Below, one piece after another: positions 4,704 to 60,101 of a stretch of DNA of 64,000 nt (positions are counted from its first letter, which is position 1; every line of letters starts with the position of its first letter). Where the stretch lies: positions 13,508 through 77,507 of the IMG/VR virus record IMGVR_UViG_3300021255_003438, one strand, 5' to 3'. Under the pieces are notes generated by a model. The model saw only the letters and a list, made by a program, of their open reading frames with translations. It did not search any database and was not told the DNA's origin. The translations under genes and the position numbers were made by a program. Source of the DNA: a virus (lineage: Duplodnaviria; Heunggongvirae; Uroviricota; Caudoviricetes).

Positions 4704-5927
4704 TTAACCAATCTGTTTAATCAGATAATTGCACTTCTCAGTATTTCCCAAGGTTTTACCCTTATCATTGGAAAGCTTAACGCAATCATGCCATTCACGG
4801 CTCTCTGTAAGCCTCATTCCAATCAATTTGATTACAATGTTGCTATAAGGAAATTTCTCTTTTGTTTCCATGTTGGCAACATCAGCGCAAAGATGTGTTC
4901 CAATGCCATAGGAGTCCTTCATACGTCCGCCAAGCCACTTGTGCAACTCAACAGCCTTGTCAATGGTAAGGGCGTTAGAATATACAATAGACTTGGTTGA
5001 TGGGTCAATACCAAGAGAACGATATTTCTCAATCATCTTCTCAGTTTCCTCATGCTCGTCACCACTGTCAATACGGATACCATCGAACATCTTAGCCATC
5101 TTTTTAGAGAAATTGGAAAGGAACACCTTTGAGCCAAAACAGTCAGGAAGGAATATGCCCAAGTCGCCGTCATACACGTCAGACCATTTCTTCATAACTT
5201 GATAATTGCACTCAAACACGCCACTTACGCACTCTTCGAATGAGCAAATCTGGTGTGACATCGTTCCTATCACTCCAAGGTCAAATTCCTTTGCAAACCA
5301 CACATTAGATGTTCCAACGAATTTTCCATTGTAATGAGGGGTTTTCTTAATCTCTATATCAGCATTTTTTAATGCGTTAATTACATTACGCTGAACGTCA
5401 AATGAAAAGCGTCTACGTGTTCCCATGTCAGAAAGCAGCAGTCCATTTGTAAATGCTTTAGCTCCTTTTGCATACGCTTCTCTGTATACGTCATCCATGT
5501 CAACCTTTTCAATGTCGCCTTTAAGTATATGCATCAACTCTGAAATGGTAGATAGAATTGGCATTTCCCACATAATTGTGGAATACCACTTACCCTCAAT
5601 CATAATTGAGAGATAGCCATCAAGGTCTTGGAAAATGTGAACCTCACTAGGATTGAAACGGAATCCACGAAGGAAATTGTAGTACCACTCTGGAAGGAAA
5701 TAAATCTTTTTCTTCATAAACTCAATCTCTTCTTCAGTGATAATTACATTGGCCATTCCGTTAATCTGCTCTTGTAGCATCTGACCAAATCCTTTTGGAT
5801 AGCGAGTATAGTTTCTGTCAAAGAACGAATACCTTACCTCTGCACGAGGATAAGTGTGTAAAATGTAATACTGACAAGTGTACGTATAGAGGTCGTTATC
5901 AGTAAAATGAGTTACAATTTGTTTCAT
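4704..5927 (-). CDS. pncB: Nicotinate phosphoribosyltransferase
   Basis: 407 aa. Has 'LLSDMGTRRRFS' and the overall NAPRTase layout and length. Confidence 0.8.
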   Translation of the reverse strand: MKQIVTHFTDNDLYTYTCQYYILHTYPRAEVRYSFFDRNYTRYPKGFGQMLQEQINGMANVIITEEEIEFMKKKIYFLPEWYYNFLRGFRFNPSEVHIFQDLDGYLSIMIEGKWYSTIMWEMPILSTISELMHILKGDIEKVDMDDVYREAYAKGAKAFTNGLLLSDMGTRRRFSFDVQRNVINALKNADIEIKKTPHYNGKFVGTSNVWFAKEFDLGVIGTMSHQICSFEECVSGVFECNYQVMKKWSDVYDGDLGIFLPDCFGSKVFLSNFSKKMAKMFDGIRIDSGDEHEETEKMIEKYRSLGIDPSTKSIVYSNALTIDKAVELHKWLGGRMKDSYGIGTHLCADVANMETKEKFPYSNIVIKLIGMRLTESREWHDCVKLSNDKGKTLGNTEKCNYLIKQIG

Positions 5928-7424: not shown

Positions 7425-8327
7425 CTACTTTGCCTCTACGTTGGTATAGTACCATTTCTCAAACTCGTTAAACTCTTCTTCAGAAAATTCTTTTTTCACA
7501 CGGTCAAGTTCGACATAATCACAATATTTAACTTTTACGATTACCCTATTGCCATTGCCACTGCAAAGAGGTACAACTGGACGTGCGACAATACCCTCTT
7601 CAATCATGGTTGGGTCAGCAGCCTTATCGTACTGAGTCGTAAAACCACTACGAACTTTGCGCTCAATTTCCTCAAGCGTCATTACACCTAGGAATGGAAC
7701 AGTCTCAAGCCCAAGACCCTTACAGAGAGAGTCACGAACATCCTTTGGAGTCCACCAGCCTTGCTGCTGGATGTCGAACACTACGAACCCATTTCCGTTC
7801 TGAATATAACGAGAGCCGCATTTCTGAATGCCAGTTCCGAAATACTCGCCATAGATGTAGATGGGGACTTCCTCAAGACGAACACCATACTGCCCTTCAC
7901 TTGTAGGAACTACAGTTAAAAGGCCAAGATGGTCTGACATATCCCAATACTCAACCTTGTTGGTGCTGCTATCCTTTACAGGGGCAAACCTAGCAGTCTC
8001 TTTTGGGAACATGGCCTTTAACTGAGGCTTGATACGCTCACCTATGGCTTGCAGCATTTCAAACTGACCATGCTGAGAATCAGCCTTATCCGTTTTACCA
8101 CCAACACGAATCTCACCAGTTGATGGGAAGTATGCAATCTTGGAGTTAGTTCCGTCAATCTTGGAATATGCCTCCCAAGGACAATTGAACAGATACTTAG
8201 CCTCTACATTGGAGAAGTTACCAATGATGATTTTGTTCTTGAACTTAAGCCAATCCTTGTTAGGACACTCCTTGCCATCGAAAATGTACCTTTTATATAG
8301 GGTATCAATCTTAGTATATGTATTCAT
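7425..8327 (-). CDS. ATP-dependent RNA ligase-like protein
   Basis: 300 aa. 'EAYSKIDGTNSKIAYF' carries the KxDG(T)N motif I of RNA/DNA ligases. TAG stop at 7425-7427. A host-type promoter lies just upstream at 8348-8379. Confidence 0.6.
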   Translation of the reverse strand: MNTYTKIDTLYKRYIFDGKECPNKDWLKFKNKIIIGNFSNVEAKYLFNCPWEAYSKIDGTNSKIAYFPSTGEIRVGGKTDKADSQHGQFEMLQAIGERIKPQLKAMFPKETARFAPVKDSSTNKVEYWDMSDHLGLLTVVPTSEGQYGVRLEEVPIYIYGEYFGTGIQKCGSRYIQNGNGFVVFDIQQQGWWTPKDVRDSLCKGLGLETVPFLGVMTLEEIERKVRSGFTTQYDKAADPTMIEEGIVARPVVPLCSGNGNRVIVKVKYCDYVELDRVKKEFSEEEFNEFEKWYYTNVEAK

Positions 8328-9983: not shown

Positions 9984-11381
9984 TCAAGTTGTTAGGCTCT
10001 TAATTTTATTCTCTACGACCTCAAAGCATTCATCTTTCGTAATATTTGGATTTTCGAAATAGGCATCTTTGACTGCCTCAAGCAGAACTCCAATTATCGG
10101 CCCACCTTTTAATTTAAATTCTGCCATAATGTCTTTTCCATTTATAGGCAGTTTGATGTTGGCCATCTTATCAATGTCCTCAAGCTCTTCTATTCTGTTA
10201 AGAAGGTCGTACACTTGTCGTTTTTTCTTGTCGTATGTGGAATGTAGGTTATTGGCGTTCATTAGGTCAACCACTGTTCCGATGTCGTTTCCGCATAGAT
10301 TCATGAACTTTCTGATTTTCTTATCTGGAGGTACTACGCCATCCGCATAGATTTTGAAAATCCTATGATATTCTATAGCAGTTTGTACGCTTTTAATGAT
10401 ATGGTTTGGAAACTTCATCATCTTCAAGTCTGCTGCTGCAATCTCTCCGCTAAAGTTATCAGGATTAACTGTTTTGTCCTTATCCGTTATAACCTTTCCA
10501 ACGTCATGGAATAATGCTGCCAATCTGCTTTCAAGGTATGGCTGCGTTTCGTCCAACACATTCATGGTATGGTCAAATGTTGTTACCATTGGGTTTTTAG
10601 ACTCATACGCAAAGTTAGTGTCGTATATATCAGGCATTACCTTGTTCAGCACGCCACAGTAATACATTTTCCTTATGCCAACGCTAGGCTTGCTGCATAA
10701 CAGAATTTTTGAAATTTCATCACTGATTCGTTCTTGTGATACGATTTCCAACCTATTTACGTTTTTAATCATACCAAGCCATGTGTCCTTATCAATACCC
10801 CATCCTAGACGAGTTGAGAAACGAATGACACGCATAATCCTCAATGGGTCATCATTGAACGTTATATCTGGGTCTGTTGGTGTTCGTATGATTTTAGCAC
10901 AAAGGTCAGAATATCCAGTGCCGTTAAAATCGCACAGTTTATCTTGGCTTATGTTGTAATATAAAGAATTGATTGTTAAATCTCTTCTTTTTGCGTCTTC
11001 TTCTATAGTTCCAAATACAGTCTCTGGATTCCTATTTTCTTTATGATACTGCTCCTTACGAGTCTGCACACATTCTATTTCAATGTCCTTAAACTCTTCG
11101 TGTTTATATAATTGGAATTTAGCAGTACCATAGGTCTCAAATATTACAGGATTTGTTGACGTAACAAAACATTGATGTTTCATCGTCATGTATGTGGAGA
11201 ATAGAAGTCCTCCATTTGGTATGTCAATTACCAAATCCAAATCCTTAATTGGAAGCCCTAAGATGCTGTCACGGACAGAGCCACCGACAACGTATACATG
11301 ATTGTCGAAGTGGGTGAACTTAATCGTTTCCCTTATTAGATTTAGAAGCTTTTTTATTTTCTCGTCCTTGAATATTTCCAT
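9984..11381 (-). CDS. cca: tRNA nucleotidyltransferase (CCA-adding enzyme) with HD domain
   Basis: 465 aa. 'VVGGSVRDSILGLPIKDLDLV' is the PolyA-polymerase head motif. 'LFHDVGK' is the HD motif. Confidence 0.8.
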   Translation of the reverse strand: MEIFKDEKIKKLLNLIRETIKFTHFDNHVYVVGGSVRDSILGLPIKDLDLVIDIPNGGLLFSTYMTMKHQCFVTSTNPVIFETYGTAKFQLYKHEEFKDIEIECVQTRKEQYHKENRNPETVFGTIEEDAKRRDLTINSLYYNISQDKLCDFNGTGYSDLCAKIIRTPTDPDITFNDDPLRIMRVIRFSTRLGWGIDKDTWLGMIKNVNRLEIVSQERISDEISKILLCSKPSVGIRKMYYCGVLNKVMPDIYDTNFAYESKNPMVTTFDHTMNVLDETQPYLESRLAALFHDVGKVITDKDKTVNPDNFSGEIAAADLKMMKFPNHIIKSVQTAIEYHRIFKIYADGVVPPDKKIRKFMNLCGNDIGTVVDLMNANNLHSTYDKKKRQVYDLLNRIEELEDIDKMANIKLPINGKDIMAEFKLKGGPIIGVLLEAVKDAYFENPNITKDECFEVVENKIKSLTT

Positions 11382-13000: not shown

Positions 13001-13771
13001 TCAACCATTATTGATTGAACATTCAAATATTGTGACTAATGCATTTGGGTCTAGGTTCTTTATAAACCTATCATAAAACGTACTGACCCATTCAGTTTCA
13101 CTACCTTCAAAGGTATCTACGTCAACCCACCCATCTTTGTCAACAAAGGCATAGTTCCAATAAGAGGTGCTGTAGTTTACATACTCTTCTTCTGATTTGA
13201 ATTTACGGAAATATGCTTCTTTGTCTTTCATGGCGTTATAGATGGCCTCTTCTTCCGTATTTGAAGGTGTTTTACCTTCCATAACCATTTCCCAAGCAGC
13301 TTTATAGACACTTGCGTTTGTGTGTGTCATTGATTCCCAATCCACTTCACTTACATGAGCAGAATAGGCTTCCATACCATTTTTTAATAGCAATGGCATA
13401 GAGAAATTCCTTCCTACCCTACAAGTGTTGAAATGGGCATTAGGATTTTCAGTTGACAAGGCATCACCATCTTCATTGTAATACATTCCATCTGTAAGCT
13501 GTCTGTAATACTCGAATGAAGATTGTTTTTTAAGCTCTTCTAAGCGTGTTTTAAGCGTTTCTTGTGTGGTTGGTGGTATTCCTATCTTATCAGCTTCATC
13601 AAGCAACTTCTCAAGCGTTTTAATAGATGCTTGCTGATACTTCTTAGCCTCAAGATATTTGTACTTGACATATGGTTCGACTTCATAGTCTGCGCCATAT
13701 TTCTCCATCATTTTCTGTGGCTCTTCTCCTACGGCCATTACAGAAAAAAATCTACTATTCGTCTGTGCCAT
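13001..13771 (-). CDS. Hypothetical protein
   Basis: 256 aa ORF. Confidence 0.45.
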   Translation of the reverse strand: MAQTNSRFFSVMAVGEEPQKMMEKYGADYEVEPYVKYKYLEAKKYQQASIKTLEKLLDEADKIGIPPTTQETLKTRLEELKKQSSFEYYRQLTDGMYYNEDGDALSTENPNAHFNTCRVGRNFSMPLLLKNGMEAYSAHVSEVDWESMTHTNASVYKAAWEMVMEGKTPSNTEEEAIYNAMKDKEAYFRKFKSEEEYVNYSTSYWNYAFVDKDGWVDVDTFEGSETEWVSTFYDRFIKNLDPNALVTIFECSINNG

Positions 13772-27797: not shown

Positions 27798-27859
27798 TCG
27801 GTGGTGTTGGACTCGAACCAACCATGCTCTAGAATCATCGCGCCAAAAATTTACCACCG
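27798..27859 (-). ncRNA. Truncated tRNA-like element (no D-arm) with a TTCTAGA loop (anticodon-like CTA)
   Basis: Perfect acceptor CGGTGGT/ACCACCG and T-arm GTTGG-TTCGAGT-CCAAC. Only 62 nt. Weak ATG(A)/(G)CAT stem around a TTCTAGA loop. Confidence 0.3.
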
Positions 27860-35286: not shown

Positions 35287-35398
35287 TCCATATATTTTTT
35301 TTTTATTAAACTTTTTGCAAATATATAAAAAAAAATTGGAAGATACAAATATATCTCCCAACTTTAATTTTGTTTAACAATTTGCCTATATGGATGTG

Positions 35399-35472
35399 TG
35401 AGCGTAGTGGGATTCGAACCCACGAACAACGGTTTTAGAGACCGCCCCAATAGACCACTCTAGCATACGCCC
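35399..35472 (-). tRNA. Candidate suppressor tRNA (anticodon CTA, would read UAG)
   Basis: Acceptor GGGCGTA/TACGCTC. T-arm GTGGG-TTCGAAT-CCCAC. Anticodon stem (G)CGGT/ACCG(T) with loop CTCTAAA (U33, CUA, A37). The D-arm is irregular. Own promoter at 35481-35511. Confidence 0.45.
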
Positions 35473-36564: not shown

Positions 36565-36650
36565 AACTCAATATATAGGATTCAAACCCATGTATTCCAA
36601 TGCTAGTGTCTATCTGTTGCTCTACTCAAATCCATTTAAGGTTAGTTAGC
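36565..36650 (-). ncRNA. tRNA-like element (type-II-like length). Structure unresolved.
   Basis: T-arm ATGGG-TTTGAAT-CCTAT and acceptor-like GCTCAAT/ATTGAGT pairing. Inconsistent internal arms. Confidence 0.25.
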
Positions 36651-37076
36651 GATTGAGCTAATATTGAGTTATATTAAAACTTACGGATATACTTTATCAG
36701 GAATCTGGCTTTCTCTGCTGAAGACTTATTTTTACCCATCCACTCATAGGAACTTCACAGAGTGCTTCACACACCATTAGGTAGCATCGAATGAGATAGT
36801 ATTCCATACGCTAGTGGAACTATATAGACATTGTTACATACCTCAATCTACATTCTTCTTAGTGTGTACCCTTGCGACAAATGTACCCACGCTTGTATAT
36901 CTACGCCTCTATCGTAAGTTTTGTGTTGAAGGGAACTTTTTTTTTCGGTATTCGTTTCAAGCAAATTCCATATAGTCATTGCTGTAAGTTCCCGCTATTG
37001 GTTAAGGAATTGGAAACGGTAGAGCCACACTACGAAACTCTCTACCTACTCATCGTAGCATTATCCAAAACCTTAG

Positions 37077-37149: not shown

Positions 37150-37193
37150 AATGTTAGTCAGAAGGAATCGAACCTTCATACAACCATTTGACC

Positions 37194-37520
37194 TTAAAGT
37201 TTCTCTACGACCTTTCCGTAGATTTGGTTTCTACCTATCCATCCATTCATGTGACCGTGAGTATTGCCTATTAGGTATTCACTATCATTCTTTATGGCAT
37301 GGATTAGATGCAAATAATGATGACCTCTAACCTTACATAATACAATGTCCTTTTTGTTAAGTTTAGTGTCATCTTTCACAGGTTCACATATTACTGCTTG
37401 CCTTGATTTCAAAAGTGGTAACATAGAATTGCCTATTCCAGTCACCTTACATGTCTCACCTCCTCTGAGGTGGTTGCATGTCTCTTGGTTTTCAAAACCA
37501 CTATAAGTAAAATCTCTCAT
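37194..37520 (-). CDS. S24-family (LexA/UmuD-like) peptidase domain protein
   Basis: 108 aa. 'GNSMLPLL' is the G(D/N)SMxP motif, with a downstream Lys (CKVRG). Confidence 0.5.
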   Translation of the reverse strand: MRDFTYSGFENQETCNHLRGGETCKVTGIGNSMLPLLKSRQAVICEPVKDDTKLNKKDIVLCKVRGHHYLHLIHAIKNDSEYLIGNTHGHMNGWIGRNQIYGKVVEKL

Positions 37521-37686: not shown

Positions 37687-37811
37687 CAGGGACTGATGGA
37701 CTCGAACCACCATTTTTCATTAACAGTTAAAGGCGTAATCTGTTCCGCAGTCGAGACTACGTTAATTCCTTAAATCGTAACAAACCACTCTTACCCTTGA
37801 GCTAAATCCCT
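37687..37811 (-). ncRNA. Long tRNA-like gene (~125 nt) with acceptor + D-arm + T-arm and ~50 extra nt
   Basis: Acceptor AGGGATT/AGTCCCT. D-arm GCTC-AAGGGTAA-GAGT. T-arm GGTGG-TTCGAGT-CCATC. Extra internal hairpins, including AACAG...CTGTT. Confidence 0.35.
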
Positions 37812-38612
37812 ATATAAATATACAAAAGACTGAGAATGTTGTCTTATGTTGATGCCGTCACACAACGGTTGGACGTTGCTCTTCACACGCTGCCTTACAG
37901 CAGACGTAGACACCATGCACGATGATTTTGCGAAAACCACCAAAAAACTTACTAGTTTAAACCTCTCGGTGCAGCATCATAGCTTTCAGTTCTTCGCCAA
38001 GCTCTTGCGGATTCATAGGATGCCTCCTATTAACTCAGGCGAGTACTTTTACACGCTCATTGAATTCCTTGCGAGTCCTCAATGTCTTCATATTGCAGAA
38101 GAATAAGTGCATTTTAGCTGCCTAGTGTCGCGCACTTTTGCTAATATAAAACCGTTTGAATCAACATTTCAAAATTTTATTGCCCATGACCTTGGAAGAC
38201 GAGGCGCGACCCATCGCATTCGTACCTTTTGAGTACGACCCACGAAATCGCCTTCCTACAAAGACTCACCACAAGTCCAATTGCTGTTATGCACTATCAG
38301 CCTTACGGTTCTCACGCCTTTCAGCGCAAGACTAGCGAATAACTAAACCCAACACGCCAACTGGTGATTATTGCATCGAGTTCAGCACAGTAATCTATTG
38401 TGTCACCACTCATCCAAAGACTCTTCGCCCTTGGAAACCTACACCTATGGTGTTACCCACGATGTAGACCGTACTATGCTCTTTTCAGTGAAATGCCTCA
38501 GTCAGCCAAGGCATCTGCAACGCTACTTGGTCAATTTCACGCCACATTTATCCTATCACTAGATTATCCTTAATGGCTACGAAAGCTAGCCAAAACCCCT
38601 TGCGAGATTCGT
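37800..38612 (-). ncRNA. GC-richer ~0.8 kb region with no ORFs: candidate large structured RNA or degenerate tRNA-like array
   Basis: No ORF over 90 codons on either strand. GC visibly higher than its flanks. Long-range complementarity (for example GGAAGACGAGGCG...CGCCTTCC, TTCGTAC...GTACGA). Embedded between tRNA genes on the transcribed strand. Confidence 0.3.
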
Positions 38613-39690: not shown

Positions 39691-40391
39691 GTTAAGTGGA
39701 GCTAGAGTGAAATAAATCTCATTAAACTCCGTACTTTTCCACATTTGTAAATATTTATATTAAAATCAATATTACTATGTCAAAAAAATATAACTTTAAT
39801 CGTAAACTAGGTACAGTTAAATGTGATAATTGCGGCAAAGAATTCCAAAAGCCCCAATCAGAAATTAACCGTAACGCTAAACTCAATAGAAATAACTACT
39901 GCTGTAGAGAATGTTCTGCTGAAGGGGTTAGAAAAACTAGATTGAATTTACCTTATAAACCAGCATCTAAAAAAATGTTAGAACATTTAAAAGATATTTG
40001 TGGAAATCATCGTGATGATTACACTCCATTCAGATATTCTTTAAGATGCGCTAAAAGACGTTTTAAAGACGTTAATGTAACTTTGGAAGACTTAAAAGAA
40101 ATATGGGAAAAACAAAATGGTGTTTGCCCATACACTGGTTTTAAACTAATTCTTCCTGAAAACTCTAATGTGAATAAAATCGATTTTTTTCATAGAGCAT
40201 CTTTAGATAGAATAGATTCTTCACTTGGTTACATTAAAGGTAACATTCAATTTATTTCTACACCTATTAACTTGATGAAACAAACACAAAGTGATGCAAG
40301 CGTTAAACAATTCCTAAAAGAAATTTCAAGTTATACATCAAAACTTTTATAAGTGTCTGATTTTCAAGTAGTTAAGTGGAGCTAGAGTGAA
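39691..40391 (+). mobile_element. Free-standing HNH homing endonuclease insertion flanked by a 21-bp direct repeat derived from a tRNA 3' end
   Basis: Identical gttaagtggagctagagtgaa at 39691-39711 and 40371-40391. The right copy continues into an intact T-arm (GAGTG-TTCGATT-CACTC). The only sizeable plus-strand gene in the window. Confidence 0.55.
39777..40352 (+). CDS. HNH homing endonuclease
   Basis: 191 aa. 'FFHRASLDRIDSSLGYIKGNIQFIS...N' matches the HNH_3 motif. N-terminal Cys pairs (CDNCGK...CCREC). Confidence 0.65.
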   Translation: MSKKYNFNRKLGTVKCDNCGKEFQKPQSEINRNAKLNRNNYCCRECSAEGVRKTRLNLPYKPASKKMLEHLKDICGNHRDDYTPFRYSLRCAKRRFKDVNVTLEDLKEIWEKQNGVCPYTGFKLILPENSNVNKIDFFHRASLDRIDSSLGYIKGNIQFISTPINLMKQTQSDASVKQFLKEISSYTSKLL

Positions 40392-44361: not shown

Positions 44362-44445
44362 GGCATTACCTTTAATGTCCTCCGTGTTGGAGTCGAACCA
44401 ACGTTGCGTTTCCGCACAGATTAAGAGTCTGTTGCATGACCTCTC
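44362..44445 (-). ncRNA. tRNA-like element with a Lys-type anticodon arm (ACAGA-CTCTTAA-TCTGT, CTT). Acceptor pairing not found.
   Basis: Perfect T-arm GTTGG-TTCGACT-CCAAC and anticodon hairpin. No complementary 5' acceptor strand. Confidence 0.3.
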
Positions 44446-44460
44446 TGCCAGGTGCATCAT

Positions 44461-45306
44461 TTATTGTATGTCCTTCTTTCTATATGGTAAACCGTAGTAT
44501 TTACACCATTTTCTTACAGCGTTGTCTGATACCCCATAAGTCCTTCCTATTGCACTGAAATTGCTCTCTTGCAGCAGCATACTAAGTTCTTCCTTACTTG
44601 GTCTCTCAACTTTTCTCTGAAGTTTCTTATTACATTCATCACATCTAGTACTATGCGAATCTATATGTTTACCACAATTAATGCACACGCCATAATATCT
44701 AACTCTTGGATGTGGCATTATACTGTTTGTTTTTAATTCACCATTGACCATCTTCTTATAACATTCATCGCAAAGTCCTGTCTGAGTCTTGTTTATTTCC
44801 TTTCCACAGCATTTACAATAATGTTTCTTATCTACACCATTGTGATGATTATTAGCGCCACAATAGTTATCTGTTTGTGAATGGCAATTGGGGCATAGTA
44901 TTTGTAAATTTTCTAGCCTATTGTCTGTATTATCCCCATTTATATGGTGTAGTTGTAAACTTATTTGTTCACCATTCCAATGAATTATACCGCATTTCTC
45001 GCATTTATATTCTTTTAGTCCACTAGAAAATAGTTTCCATTTAAGTCTATCAGCCTTAATATATGAGTTAGTAGTAAGGTAATCTTCTACTTTTTTCTCG
45101 TTGTGTTTAACACCACTATTGGACTTTCCTTTCATTGTGAAATGACTAGTATCAAGCTCTAACTCATTTATGTATTTTTTGACATATCTGTAGTTACCGC
45201 CTTGTGGCTTCCATCCAATCTTTCTACATACATCAGCGTATGTGTGGCTCTCTTCAACGAACCTTTTAAAATCCTCGTTACTAATTCTTTTCATATGCAA
45301 AATCAT
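44461..45306 (-). CDS. HNH homing endonuclease-like protein with a C-terminal HTH
   Basis: 281 aa. 'LQLHHINGDNTDNRLENLQILCPNCH' is the HNH motif. Several CxxC pairs. Confidence 0.6.
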   Translation of the reverse strand: MILHMKRISNEDFKRFVEESHTYADVCRKIGWKPQGGNYRYVKKYINELELDTSHFTMKGKSNSGVKHNEKKVEDYLTTNSYIKADRLKWKLFSSGLKEYKCEKCGIIHWNGEQISLQLHHINGDNTDNRLENLQILCPNCHSQTDNYCGANNHHNGVDKKHYCKCCGKEINKTQTGLCDECYKKMVNGELKTNSIMPHPRVRYYGVCINCGKHIDSHSTRCDECNKKLQRKVERPSKEELSMLLQESNFSAIGRTYGVSDNAVRKWCKYYGLPYRKKDIQ

Positions 45307-46106: not shown

Positions 46107-46192
46107 CGGAGGGGCAGGAATTCGAATCCTATACCCTAATGGGTACGTTCTGATTAGCAGTCAGACCCAGTTCCTTTCTGGTTGCGCCCTCC
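46107..46192 (-). tRNA. tRNA-Ser (anticodon GCT), type II
   Basis: Acceptor GGAGGGC/CCCCTCC. D-stem CCAG/CTGG. Anticodon stem TCTGA/TCAGA with loop CTGCTAA. Variable-arm hairpin TACCC-ATTA-GGGTA. T-loop TTCGAAT. Confidence 0.6.
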
Positions 46193-47043: not shown

Positions 47044-47844
47044 TTAAATATTTTGCAAATTGTTTAATATATGTTCTTTCCAATAATTTCTTCTAGTGCT
47101 GTTTTTATTTTTTGACTTAAATGTGTCTAACTGACTATCACAATTAGGACATATCATCCGCAAATTTTCTCTTTTGTTGTTAGAAGCATCACCATCAATA
47201 TGGTCTAGTACAAATACTAACGGTTTACCATTATGTTCTGGTTTACCTCCACATATTGGGCATATACCACCTTGTTCCTTTAAGAATTCTTTTTTAAAAG
47301 CTTTTGGTGTATAATTTCCTCTACAGTATTTATTGTTATTTTCTAGAAAATCTTTATAAGATTCTCTATGCCTATGTTCTGCAACACATTTTTCAGAACA
47401 ATATTTAGCATCTTTTACTGTAGTTTCAAAATATTTTCCACAAACAACACATTTTTTTGTATATTTAATTAATTTCTTTTCTTTTTTAATGTGTTCTTTT
47501 TTCGTTTTCTTTAACTTACTAGCAATACCATCATAAACAGATTTATCCCTATGTTCATTGTTATACTTCGCAGCACAAGAACGGCAACAAAATTCCTTAC
47601 CCCATTTATTAGTAATTTCTTTTCCGCATTGCTTACAATATTTAATTATTTTTTTCTTTTTATAAGTATCTAAATCAAATCCAACTGACGTTGCAATTTC
47701 TTTCAAATATTCAGAACCTTGTTTATTATCGCTTATTCCGAAATATTCATGTGCTTGATTTTTGCTAGTAAAACTATCAAATTTATCAAAGACCTCTTTC
47801 TTTTTTTCTTCTGTACTAATGTCAATAATCTTTCTTTTCCTCAT
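47044..47844 (-). CDS. HNH homing endonuclease-like protein
   Basis: 266 aa. 'VLDHIDGDASNNKRENLRMICPNCDSQ' is the HNH motif. Many CxxC pairs. Confidence 0.6.
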   Translation of the reverse strand: MRKRKIIDISTEEKKKEVFDKFDSFTSKNQAHEYFGISDNKQGSEYLKEIATSVGFDLDTYKKKKIIKYCKQCGKEITNKWGKEFCCRSCAAKYNNEHRDKSVYDGIASKLKKTKKEHIKKEKKLIKYTKKCVVCGKYFETTVKDAKYCSEKCVAEHRHRESYKDFLENNNKYCRGNYTPKAFKKEFLKEQGGICPICGGKPEHNGKPLVFVLDHIDGDASNNKRENLRMICPNCDSQLDTFKSKNKNSTRRNYWKEHILNNLQNI

Positions 47845-51924: not shown

Positions 51925-51960
51925 TGTATAGGGGGTGGGAGTCGAACCCACAACTACCTT
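51925..51960 (-). ncRNA. Orphan tRNA 3' half (T-arm + acceptor 3' strand) directly downstream of tRNA-Arg
   Basis: GTGGG-TTCGACT-CCCAC then CCCCTAT. No 5' partner strand within 100 nt. Confidence 0.35.
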
Positions 51961-51965
51961 ATTCG

Positions 51966-52040
51966 TTGCTCGTCTGGGACTCAAACCCAGGACCCTATCT
52001 TTCGTAGAGATATGCTCTAATTCAACTGAGCTAACGAGCA
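51966..52040 (-). tRNA. tRNA-Arg (anticodon ACG)
   Basis: Acceptor TGCTCGT/ACGAGCA. D-arm GCTC-AGTTGAATTA-GAGC. Anticodon stem TATCT/AGATA with loop CTACGAA. T-arm CTGGG-TTTGAGT-CCCAG. Confidence 0.65.
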
Positions 52041-52459
52041 ATAAAAAGGAAACGTAGGTTTTCGAGCTTGCTTATTCTGCTATTACTATGAGGGTGGTAT
52101 TTCAAGATTGACTCCACACATCCTAGCGAATATGCTTCAACGTCTCCCACCTATCCTACACTCATATGCCATTGCTACTGTTATTCACAAGAGTAACACG
52201 TTATGCAGCCCTAGCCTTATCTTTTGGAATTGTAACGAGTTAAGATTTCATATGCTGTACGTTTCCGATATATTGTGTCAATTGCGACAAAAGAAAAAAG
52301 GAACGACCAATTTTATGTCTTGGCTCGACATTCGCCCCGAAGAGCATAGGTAAGTGCCTCGCAATGATGATTTAACGCTTCTCTTACCTTCGTCTAGTCT
52401 GAATTAAAAATGTGTTCTTATAAATTTATTTTAATCAAACTGCTGTACGTTCCTACTTG

Positions 52460-54299: not shown

Positions 54300-54340
54300 T
54301 CTATGTAGGGTAGAAGGGATTCGAACCCCCCACAAACCTT
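54300..54340 (-). ncRNA. Orphan tRNA 3' half downstream of the 54343..54420 tRNA
   Basis: GGGGG-TTCGAAT-CCCTT then CTACCCT-A. No partner 5' strand. Confidence 0.35.
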
Positions 54341-54342
54341 TG

Positions 54343-54420
54343 TACCGCTGGTGGGAGTCGAACCCACAAAATGACGCTACCCCTAAAATAGCCGACTTTA
54401 CCTAATTTGCCCACAGCGGT
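54343..54420 (-). tRNA. tRNA (anticodon TAG, Leu-like) with an irregular D region
   Basis: Acceptor ACCGCTG/CAGCGGT is perfect. Hairpin GCTAT-TTTAGGG-GTAGC. T-arm GTGGG-TTCGACT-CCCAC. Confidence 0.4.
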
Positions 54421-54843: not shown

Positions 54844-54957
54844 AGCCGTGTGCTGGATTCGAACCAACGTTTGTACTTAAACACCCCTTGTGCATATGCT
54901 GGTACCTACTGGGGTCGCCTCGTTTGCGCTGTGCTGACCGTCTTACACTAACACGGC
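54844..54957 (-). ncRNA. Long tRNA-like gene (~114 nt) sharing the acceptor stem with tRNA-Thr(TGT)
   Basis: Acceptor GCCGTGT/ACACGGC. T-arm GTTGG-TTCGAAT-CCAGC. About 85 nt internal with GGTACC/GCATATGC palindromes. Confidence 0.35.
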
Positions 54958-55231
54958 AATTTCTTGAGCAGTGTAGGAGATTCGAACTCCCTCCTTGACC
55001 TTGGCAAGGTTATATGCTACCATTAACACCAACACTGCAAAGTCAGTTTTTATAACCGTAAAACTGAAAAACTTCCTCCACCTACGATGAGGCAATAGTT
55101 TGAATCCCTTCAGGGACTACTGACGTTACGTTGAGCCTCAAATCTCTTTTGATAGTCTTTTTTAACGTGCAGATAATCTAGCAAGTAGTATGTACACGAT
55201 ATTTTAAGGAAACGTTTGTTGTTTATTTTTT

Positions 55232-55320
55232 AGTGCTCTAACCAACTGAGCTACCACGCTATGTTATTATGATTTAGTAGCGTGGACAGGATTCGAACCT
55301 GTGACCCCTAGCTTGAAATG
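55232..55320 (-). ncRNA. Permuted/split tRNA-like unit A: 3' half then 17-nt linker then 5' half
   Basis: On the sense strand: ...GGGTC-ACAGG-TTCGAAT-CCTGT-CCACGCT-A, then CTAAATCATAATAACAT, then AGCGTGG-TA-GCTC-AGTTGGTTA-GAGC-A, then an A-rich tail. The acceptor strands are perfectly complementary (7/7). Confidence 0.45.
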
Positions 55321-55358
55321 CTTTTTAAACGATGTACTTTGCTGTACGTTTCCACTTG

Positions 55359-57074: not shown

Positions 57075-57100
57075 AACATTACCTTAAAAAACGGATACTT

Positions 57101-57165
57101 TTGTTTAATATACCAATACCCACGAATGGGTGCTTAAACCATTTGTTTAGGTTTAGCTTGGATTC
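57101..57165 (-). ncRNA. Permuted/split tRNA-like unit C (3' half then 8-nt linker then 5' half)
   Basis: On the sense strand: CTTGG-TTCGAAT-CCAAG-CTAAACC-T, then AAACAAAT, then GGTTTAA-GC-ACCC-ATTCGTG-GGT. Acceptor strands pair 6/7. Confidence 0.4.
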
Positions 57166-57359
57166 GAACCAAGAAATTGTAACAAAATTACATTGCTGTA
57201 AGTATCCTTGCGTTAATTATATCAACTATCACGTTTGGACTGCTACTAGAGACCTTACCCCCATCCATACCTCTCTAGGAAGATAACCTAGCACATTCTT
57301 TCAATTTCCATGACCCCACAGTTTATTGGACTTACGTGGCACGATTATTTGATATATAG

Positions 57360-57432: not shown

Positions 57433-57460
57433 ATTTTTCGGAAACATTTTTTATTTTTTA

Positions 57461-57530
57461 CATTGCTCTACCAACTGAGCTACAACGAGCTATTGCCCAT
57501 TGAAGAGACTCGAACTCTTGACCTACGGAT
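57461..57530 (-). ncRNA. Permuted/split tRNA-like unit B (3' half then 5-nt linker then 5' half)
   Basis: On the sense strand: AAGAG-TTCGAGT-CTCTT-CAATGGG-C, then AATAG, then CTCGTTG-TA-GCTC-AGTTGGTA-GAGC-A, then an A-rich tail. Acceptor strands pair 7/7 with two G-U. Confidence 0.4.
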
Positions 57531-57732
57531 TACAAATCATAATAAAAACGTTTGCATTGCTGTATGTTTCCTTTTATGTTTTATGAAACTGTTTTGGCTC
57601 TATGCTTTCTGTTCTATCACGTTCCAATACGTAATCCCTAAGAAGGGTTAGGCTTAACGAATTATTCTTTTACATTTCATTCGCCCTCTTGCTACGATAG
57701 CAAGACTGTGATTACTCACCGTTCAGTCTCAT

Positions 57733-58242: not shown

Positions 58243-58313
58243 TCGGTAGGTTGAGACTCGAACTCAAATCTCTTAGTAAAAGCCAAGGCTCTAACCCATT
58301 GAGCTACCCATCG
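58243..58313 (-). ncRNA. tRNA-like gene (canonical D- and T-arms, unresolved anticodon stem)
   Basis: D-arm GCTC-AATGGGTTA-GAGC. T-arm TTGAG-TTCGAGT-CTCAA. Acceptor pairs 6/7. Confidence 0.4.
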
Positions 58314-59775: not shown

Positions 59776-59800
59776 TGTCAGCCAAGGTAGATTCGAACTA
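59776..59800 (-). ncRNA. Orphan T-arm/acceptor 3' fragment (GGTAG-TTCGAAT-CTACC + TTGGCTG)
   Basis: No complementary 5' strand found. Confidence 0.25.
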
Positions 59801-60101
59801 CCACCGTTATTTCTAACGCCATCAAGTCTTCCCAATTGCACTATAACTTGAAACCTCCTAGCCCAATGTAGGTGTGCTACCATTACTCCATTGACTGAAT
59901 TTGCTACATCGGTGGGATTCGAACCCAACGTAGAAACGAAAATGTTTCGACTCATATCTAACAAGGATGCACTTTTAAGGTCTTTGCTAGCAATTGACCT
60001 CCTAGTTTCATTGACTGTTTGTCTCATTTGTCCCAGATGTGGCATTAAGACTTGCAATTTTCTTAAAAATCCATATCCATTCCTCTGATACGATGCAGTT
60101 G

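Follow-up and report, generated by a model that had tools for sequence, protein, structure and literature searches.

Two stranded tRNA 3' ends in the tRNA island of a giant rumen phage are very probably scars of tRNA gene replacement

In temperate phages, attP cores often duplicate the T arm and the acceptor 3' end of a tRNA. T-arm DNA also lies at the centre of a homing system in phage T4, where SegB recognises the sequence GGTTCRANTCC, cleaves tRNA genes and drives the inheritance of its tRNA region (PMC2330249). SegB-driven amplification of a phage tRNA gene counters Septu, which is reported to cut the variable loop of a tRNA and against which phage tRNA genes are a counter-measure (PMC13096335). 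In the YrlA class of Y RNAs, the published architecture runs from the T arm through an acceptor stem-loop to the D arm (PMC4201824). Here we analysed a stretch of 64,000 nt of an uncultured tailed phage (IMG/VR record IMGVR_UViG_3300021255_003438, positions 13,508 to 77,507), hereafter called the window. A first-pass annotation had listed five orphan tRNA 3' halves in it, at 51925-51960, 54300-54340, 37161-37177, 59776-59800 and 40366-40391, and had proposed that they were either attP cores or leftovers of recombination by homing endonucleases. We consider it very probable that two of them, at 51925-51964 (relic 1) and 54304-54339 (relic 2), are scars of tRNA gene replacement and that the other three belong to complete RNAs.

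The window is AT-rich (~35% G+C). ARAGORN called 32 genes in the interval from 27 to 61 kb, every one of them on the minus strand; a tmRNA and an amber-suppressor tRNA(CTA) are among them, and the Rfam scan added six further tRNA matches and a 23S rRNA fragment. The domains found among the window ORFs include TelA, radical-SAM, OmpA-like, HNH endonuclease, CCA-adding enzyme, RNA ligase and NAPRTase. Because of this tRNA gene content, the lack of a close relative among GenBank phages (isolated tRNA matches only) and the IMG/VR contigs of ~100 to 412 kb that encode proteins 70-95% identical to those of the window, we assigned the window to the tRNA island of an uncultured giant rumen phage family, whose relatives are ~400-kb contigs. 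When the OmpA-like ORF was used as an anchor for relatives, the contig of L001 alone was returned (handles beginning with L denote the 34 loci fetched for comparison). The amber-suppressor tRNA at 35398-35472 (minus strand) suggests that the phage genome, at least in part, is translated with TAG as a sense codon, and the table-11 ORF calls may therefore be split. None of the window tRNAs encodes CCA, and nearly all have C-A-(A) after the discriminator.

The motif GGTTCRANTCC occurs 34 times in the window against 0.16 expected, with all 34 matches on the minus strand and 14 of them outside ARAGORN genes. The modules made of a T arm and an acceptor 3' strand are not due to chance. We defined a module as a T arm (5 bp with a TTCRANN loop) followed by a 7-nt acceptor 3' strand, a discriminator and CA, and a structural scan of the window with this definition returned ~18 credible modules outside ARAGORN tRNAs and none on the plus strand. 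Such modules are indeed present on the minus strand at all five places listed by the first-pass annotation, whose count of five was too low. Counted over the window and the 34 fetched loci together, 389 modules fall within called tRNAs and 268 do not; almost all of them are on the sense strand, and ~40% of the T arms of this phage family lie beyond ARAGORN-called tRNAs.

Among 240 non-redundant modules outside called tRNAs, a perfect 7-bp partner stands 28-115 nt upstream of 95 (control, 24), and these 95 are complete unconventional tRNA-like genes of 62-125 nt. The partner lies 4-21 nt downstream for 29 of the 240 (control, 10), usually with TAGCTCAG next. Short local helices beside orphan T arms barely exceeded shuffled controls in length, and we rejected a local minihelix as a general account of the orphans for this reason. 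The 'intron' calls of ARAGORN were also set aside as heuristic, because the additional stretch in tRNA-like genes of 100-125 nt does not clearly represent an intron of the anticodon loop. In genomes of this type, standard tRNA finders overlook or mislabel a large proportion of the RNAs that bear a T arm.

Table 1 Features of the tRNA island and of related loci (window positions unless a locus handle is given; strands refer to the window).
Feature	Location	Strand	Evidence or remark
Relic 1, last ~40 nt of an 89-nt long-variable-arm tRNA-Arg(ACG), 'type A'	51925-51964	-	identical module in intact relatives
Incoming canonical 75-nt tRNA-Arg(ACG), 'type C'	51966-52040	-	ARAGORN and Rfam tRNA, 57.5 bits
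Relic 2, 3' end of an 89-nt class-II tRNA-Leu(TAG), 'type A'	54304-54339	-	identical to L001 9531-9619
Incoming 78-nt tRNA-Leu(TAG), 'Leu-prime', 8-nt variable region	54343-54420	-	ARAGORN and Rfam, 43.2 bits
Third relic, unlisted: T arm and acceptor 3' strand ACGGAGG, different tRNA body	44378-44450	-	
Phage tmRNA, tag GEYIDTPAYEYAIAA	40374-40735	-	ARAGORN; Rfam RF00023, 57.9 bits, full model
Complete 120-nt tRNA-like RNA	59778-59897	-	7/7 partner strand, conservation with L002
Small T-arm element	37152-37193	-	directly behind stop codon of ORF 37194-37520
YrlA-like unit, permuted tRNA-Thr(TGT)	57440-57571	-	closing stem GGAAACAT/ATGTTTCC; Rfam YrlA 34.1 bits, E 1.7e-4
YrlA-like unit, permuted tRNA, acceptor CCACGCT/AGCGTGG, TTC loop	55208-55353	-	Rfam YrlA 39.8 bits, E 3.8e-6
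Further YrlA-like units	57093-57207; L003 2688-2758; L007 6475-6582; L020 6768-6878	-	
RNA frame, unit starts	60256, 58337, 57571, 57207, 55353, 54550, 52453, 52266, 41121, 36992, 36425, 27294	-	
tRNA-like genes of 125, 114, 101 and 62 nt	37687-37811, 54844-54957, 36567-36667, 27798-27859	-	
tRNA with 6-nt anticodon loop, ARAGORN 'tRNA-??? (tt)'	58243-58313; L001 4603-4671; L003 12692-12762	-	conserved
Modules with a T arm in relatives, 9-42 nt after an intact tRNA	L011 5990-6014; L014 740-764; L033 480-504		
CCCCTCC/GGAGGGG family	46107-46131; L001 18853; L005 3739; L006 1612; L007 1585; L009 1283; L011 1512; L012 354; L019 1912	-	
CCA-adding enzyme	9984-11381	-	domain search
RNA ligase (PF09414)	7425-8327	-	domain search
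NAPRTase	4704-5927	-	domain search

Relic 1 starts right behind the type C tRNA-Arg(ACG) and reads on the minus strand CGAATAAGGTAGTT-GTGGG-TTCGACT-CCCAC-CCCCTAT-A-CA. It keeps the variable-arm 3' strand and the T arm, followed by the acceptor 3' strand CCCCTAT, the A and the CA. Its 25-nt module recurs without any change at the 3' end of an intact tRNA-Arg(ACG) of 89-90 nt, which we call type A, in 11 contigs: L001 (12134-12222), L003 (7975-8064) and nine metagenome contigs (L026-L034), one of which, L029, is probably the L003 contig, with the same length, tRNA coordinates and sequence. The acceptor of the intact gene is GTAGGGG/CCCCTAT, and its true 5' strand GTAGGGG is absent from the window. 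Among 12 occurrences of this sequence, the window alone shows the truncated state. The locus is orthologous, because the intact type A gene in L030, L033 and L034 is preceded by the same upstream L1-stalk-mimic element as in the window. Alignment showed that the first ~51 nt of type A are precisely replaced by type C, with the left junction at the tRNA 5' end, after ...CGTTTCCTTTTTAT, and the right junction within the variable-arm loop CGAA. Exact 34-mer and short-BLAST searches of the fetched loci and IMG/VR yielded no donor of the incoming tRNA-Arg. The resident type A is an odd tRNA in its own right (89-90 nt, with a class-II-like variable arm, a G1-U72 pair and an Rfam score of 37 bits), and its variable arm shows a compensatory change between relatives.

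Relic 2 consists of the variable-arm 3' strand AGGTTT, the T arm GGGGG-TTCGAAT-CCCTT, the acceptor 3' strand CTACCCT, A and CA. Its identity with the intact tRNA-Leu(TAG) of L001, the one relative from which an intact homologue is known and the sole match of an exact IMG/VR search, covers the 3' end and the downstream flank. The window segment that carries Leu-prime takes the place of the 5' part of the resident gene and of ~100 nt upstream. A ~90% identical Leu-prime stands in L031 before the relic of a different resident tRNA-Leu(TAG), which comprises the T arm, acceptor strand and flank of a gene that is intact in L002. Since the L031 relic begins with AGGTT, as relic 2 does, a single invasion followed by a later T-arm crossover might account for both cases, and two separate invasions would be equally possible. 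A low-threshold ARAGORN call of an overlapping 'tRNA-Ser' (54304-54396) was rejected, as its partner heptamer lies in the preceding anticodon arm and was judged a chance match. A long-variable-arm tRNA gave way to a short-variable-arm one in both window cases, Arg and Leu.

Both relics lack the 5' acceptor strand, the D arm and the anticodon arm, and Rfam gave no match at either of them at E values up to 5. Searches upstream and downstream for a 5' partner in tRNA geometry (GTAGGGG for relic 1 and GGGGTAG for relic 2) found only heptamers inside the anticodon arm of the preceding tRNA, complementary at 6/7 and 7/7 positions, which are most simply explained by chance. The description of these two fragments as 3' halves without a complementary 5' strand, lying just 3' of an intact tRNA-Arg and tRNA-Leu, therefore stood.

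A third relic, which the first-pass annotation had not listed, shares this origin from a tRNA gene of the phage family. Positions 44378-44402 exactly reproduce the 3' end of a tRNA of 91 nt, called Ser(AGA), that is intact in L007 and L009; in the window they are fused to a different tRNA body without a 5' acceptor strand, and Rfam reports a partial tRNA match at 44386-44450 (model positions 8-63). This relic adjoins an HNH ORF (44461-45306, HNH/HNH_3 domains). ORF 47044-47844 has a weak, sub-threshold HNH_3 match, and the ORFs adjoining relics 1 and 2 yielded no endonuclease domain.

The other three listed fragments each have their complementary strand. The module at 40366-40391 is the T arm and acceptor 3' strand of the tmRNA and was rejected as an orphan half. 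The one at 59776-59800, which is 300 nt from the nearest called tRNA, was rejected likewise: it is the 3' end of a 120-nt RNA whose partner CAGTCAA at 59897 pairs at 7/7 positions. This RNA consists of a 7-bp acceptor CAGTCAA/TTGGCTG, D-like and anticodon-like arms, two extra hairpins and a T arm; the limits of its conservation with L002 coincide exactly with the two acceptor strands, and an internal hairpin carries the compensatory change TCAAGT/ACTTGA to TCAAGC/GCTTGA. The fragment at 37161-37177 lies 5' of tRNA-Ala rather than downstream of it, and it falls inside a small element with a short local partner strand, composed of GGTCA, an 11-nt linker containing GG, GAAGG-TTCGATT-CCTTC and then TGACT-AA-CA. 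The element is kept at the same place, behind the ORF, in 11 related loci, where its T stem covaries (GAAGG/CCTTC, TAGGG/CCCTA, TATGG/CCATA), as does its outer helix of 5-6 bp (GGTCA(C)/(G)TGACT versus TRCCCA/TGGGTG), and the GG-containing linker recurs. Thermodynamic folding of this element gave weak z-scores.

Some of the modules outside called tRNAs are parts of permuted units. In the unit at 57440-57571, the order of the tRNA-Thr(TGT) is 3' part, 5-nt loop and 5' part, and in-silico rotation yields a perfect cloverleaf; the unit at 55208-55353, closed by the stem GGAAACGT/ACGTTTCC, also rotates into a cloverleaf. These units contain the whole tRNA sequence, with the junction between positions 29 and 30, and the acceptor pairs of the relatives' units covary (CGAGGGG/CTCCTTG, CGAGGAG/CTCCTTG, CGAGGGG/CTTCTTG). 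Within the closing stem, the elements follow the order T arm, acceptor-like stem-loop and D arm, and the modules with downstream partners are enclosed by a closing stem of the form GGAAnnT-ACAGCA ... AnnTTCC-TTTT. Rfam RF02553 (YrlA) matched over the full model; the three window scores were 39.8, 34.1 and 24.3 bits and those of relatives 33-36 bits, all short of the gathering score of 69. A reading of the units as true permuted tRNA genes was disfavoured against the YrlA-like one because of these full-model matches, because canonical Thr-TGT and Glu-TTC genes are already present in the window, and because the same closing frame also encloses non-tRNA cargo. No TROVE domain (Ro60/Rsr) was found in the scanned window ORFs by Pfam, two ORFs of ~500 aa had no Ro-like PDB match, the Ro-binding motif GNCGAAN0-1G was not seen in the unit sequences, and inspection of the 29/30 junction by eye revealed no bulge-helix-bulge.

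The closing frame itself is a repeated feature of the island, with GGA-N3-5-ACAGCA at the 5' end, a complementary closing strand and a T run at the 3' end, and its stem positions covary. The window and loci contain 112 copies in sense and none in antisense, 61 of them with the closing 7-mer, and most stand directly 3' of a tRNA. The cargo varies from nothing (52-76 nt) through T-arm hairpins, permuted tRNA and normal-order tRNA-like sequence to an L1-stalk mimic. The tRNA with a 6-nt anticodon loop, for instance, lies in normal order inside a GGAATCT...AGATTCC frame. The mimic, at 52087-52166 (minus strand) inside the unit 52048-52266, is a complete copy of the 23S rRNA L1 stalk (H76-78) that matches positions 2131-2210 of the Rfam LSU_rRNA_bacteria model (57-63 bits, E ~1e-16), retains all conserved loop nucleotides and has compensated stems. 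It is enclosed by a GGAAACGT/ACGTTTCC stem just upstream of tRNA-Arg(ACG), occurs also in L002, L030, L033 and L034, and may bind ribosomal protein uL1. We found no earlier report of such a mimic in the literature searched.

Further structured RNAs accompany these units. A GOLLD-like large RNA lies at 37827-38256 (minus strand) of the window, directly upstream of the 125-nt tRNA-like gene, and at 9266-9696 of L007; Rfam RF02032 scores 73 bits (E 4e-18, full model) and 62 bits, respectively, short of the gathering score of 150. The 125-, 114-, 101- and 62-nt tRNA-like genes have perfect 7-bp acceptor stems and T arms, whereas their middles are expanded or reduced. Default ARAGORN misses these genes, most of which are conserved in relatives. 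A conserved family without a canonical D arm, a further case in which the partner lies downstream, carries a T arm followed by CCCCTCC and, 16-20 nt on, GGAGGGG-TTGAAATG; its two strands covary, because L019 has CCCACCC/GGGTGGG. For the modules behind intact tRNAs in L011, L014 and L033, no intact homologue was found among the fetched loci, and those of L011 and L014 form a 4-bp local stem (CTGG/CCAG or CTGG/CTAG) that runs into a GGAAGCTTACAGCAA frame.

We propose that in each of the two window cases a segment carrying a shorter tRNA of the same anticodon overwrote the resident gene up to 5-15 nt before the T stem, which would have stranded the old 36-40-nt 3' end a few bases behind the new gene. 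The exchange would be a recombination between co-infecting relatives, presumably started or resolved beside the conserved T-arm DNA (GGTTCRANTCC) that both relics contain. Recombination near T-arm DNA is the best explanation of the identity of the relics to intact genes of relatives, the junction positions, the same-anticodon neighbour and the related arrangement in L031. A homing endonuclease may have been the agent of replacement. The relics themselves probably have no function. The proposal that the listed fragments are leftovers of recombination is accordingly supported for relics 1 and 2, and also for the unlisted 44378-44402, all of which match intact genes of relatives; it fails for the other three. 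Block ends of homology between the window and L001 or L002 lie within 15 nt of T-arm modules in 14 of 64 cases against 5.9 expected, an enrichment that is confounded because tRNAs are conserved islands where similarity naturally restarts.

The relics might instead be kept as functional tRNA-like 3' modules that provide processing signals for RNase P, RNase Z or the CCA enzyme, or that act as T-arm decoys for nucleases. Elements with T arms that are not tRNAs are clearly functional elsewhere in this phage family (the element behind ORF 37194-37520, kept in 11 loci, and the YrlA-like units), the phage encodes a CCA-adding enzyme, and both relics are undecayed and still perfect copies, a state that fits a recent event and equally allows selection. 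We nevertheless judge a retained function unlikely, since the state of relic 1 is lineage-specific, occurring in no relative, and since the relics have no local partner strand and the helices adjacent to orphans are not clearly above shuffles. It is more improbable still that each relic is the 3' half of a tRNA-like gene that is split or circularly permuted and has its 5' half at another place. The island does contain such arrangements, in that the modules at 55278, 57495 and 57149 are followed within 5-18 nt by a perfect complementary 5' strand and a D arm and rotate into cloverleaves, but neither relic has a complementary heptamer downstream, the heptamers found upstream sit in the anticodon arm of the preceding tRNA, and collinear intact genes exist in relatives. 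Assembly chimeras at T-arm k-mers common to several strains deserve similarly little credence. Identical T-arm stretches of 18-20 nt do occur between different tRNAs of the family and the region is highly mosaic, whereas the relics stand behind complete tRNAs with unique junction sequences absent from the parents, and the same kind of arrangement recurs in the independent assembly L031.

The first-pass suggestion of attP cores, which would copy the 3' ends of host tRNAs for integrase-driven insertion into host tRNA genes, was not borne out, and we regard it as scarcely tenable. The shape of the fragments fits it, being T arm plus acceptor 3' end. In a search for exact matches (genome_contigs, one genome for each of 185,579 bacterial and archaeal species), GGGTTCGACTCCCACCCCCTATA and GGTTCGAATCCCTTCTACCCTA matched no genome, and the fragments belong to the tRNA genes of the phage family itself. 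The acceptor CCCCTAT would imply a G1-U72 or A1-U72 tRNA, untypical of bacteria. The 30 ORFs scanned within this 64-kb part of a ~400-kb genome showed no domain of an integrase, recombinase or resolvase, the relatives are ~400-kb phage contigs, and there are several modules per genome, all co-oriented with the tRNAs. A false lead is thereby removed, as there is no sign of temperate integration.

Replacement at tRNA genes, the reading we prefer, means that the tRNA island of a giant rumen phage turns over by cassette replacement, as with SegB in T-even phages. The same-anticodon pattern, together with its occurrence in two lineages, suggests that the target of selection is the body of the tRNA and not the decoding capacity. 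This bears on the view, now current, that phage tRNAs serve as counter-defence against host systems that cleave tRNAs. A wider proposal would be that tRNA alleles home into same-anticodon residents through T-arm breaks and are selected by tRNA-cutting host nucleases, and that T-arm modules are a general building block; taken as a whole we find this rather doubtful and offer it as speculation. If it were true, the same block would be reused in the YrlA-like permuted tRNA mimics, the ORF-end T-arm elements and the 100-125-nt tRNA-like RNAs.

Compared with known systems, the fragments fall into distinct groups. The relics resemble the attP/attB cores in tRNA genes of temperate phages in covering the T arm and acceptor 3' end; they differ in having no host counterpart and no integrase found in the ORFs scanned, in their number per genome and in their derivation from phage tRNAs. 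The listed fragment at 40366-40391 resembles the tRNA-like domain of tmRNA, in which the T arm and acceptor 3' strand lie far from the 5' strand, and it is simply part of the annotated phage tmRNA, not an orphan. Circularly permuted tRNA genes of the Cyanidioschyzon type place the 3' half before the 5' half and regain a cloverleaf on rotation, a likeness confined to 57440-57571 and 55208-55353. The YrlA Y RNAs (PMC4201824; RF02553) share their element order with these unlisted permuted units and not with relics 1 and 2, and the 7-bp acceptor stem of the units resembles that of Mycobacterium smegmatis YrlA, which is cleaved by RNase P and then CCA-tailed (PMC4201824). The units differ from YrlA in scoring below the gathering threshold, in retaining a complete anticodon stem-loop, in being many per genome and in standing in the GGAAnnT-ACAGCA ... 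AnnTTCC-TTTT frame that is common to other cargos.

The relics themselves are closest to tRNA pseudogenes and to the products of SegB homing. Like truncated tRNA genes, they are partial tRNAs that lack the 5' acceptor strand and the D and anticodon arms and have an intact homologue elsewhere; unlike them, they are undecayed and occupy the orthologous position immediately after a functional replacement, with a defined junction just 5' of the T stem. As in the T4 tRNA cluster (PMC2330249; PMC13096335), relatives differ by whole tRNA cassettes, the recognition core of SegB is T-arm DNA of the kind carried by both relics, resident tRNA markers are replaced by exchange, and free-standing HNH ORFs lie inside the island. 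The window differs from the SegB system in that neither a GIY-YIG nor any other endonuclease was detected next to relics 1 and 2, and in that the incoming gene shares the anticodon of the truncated one, of which a 3' stump is still visible. The relics add a new example to a known class of events, and the population of tRNA-like RNAs around them is the more unusual feature of this island.
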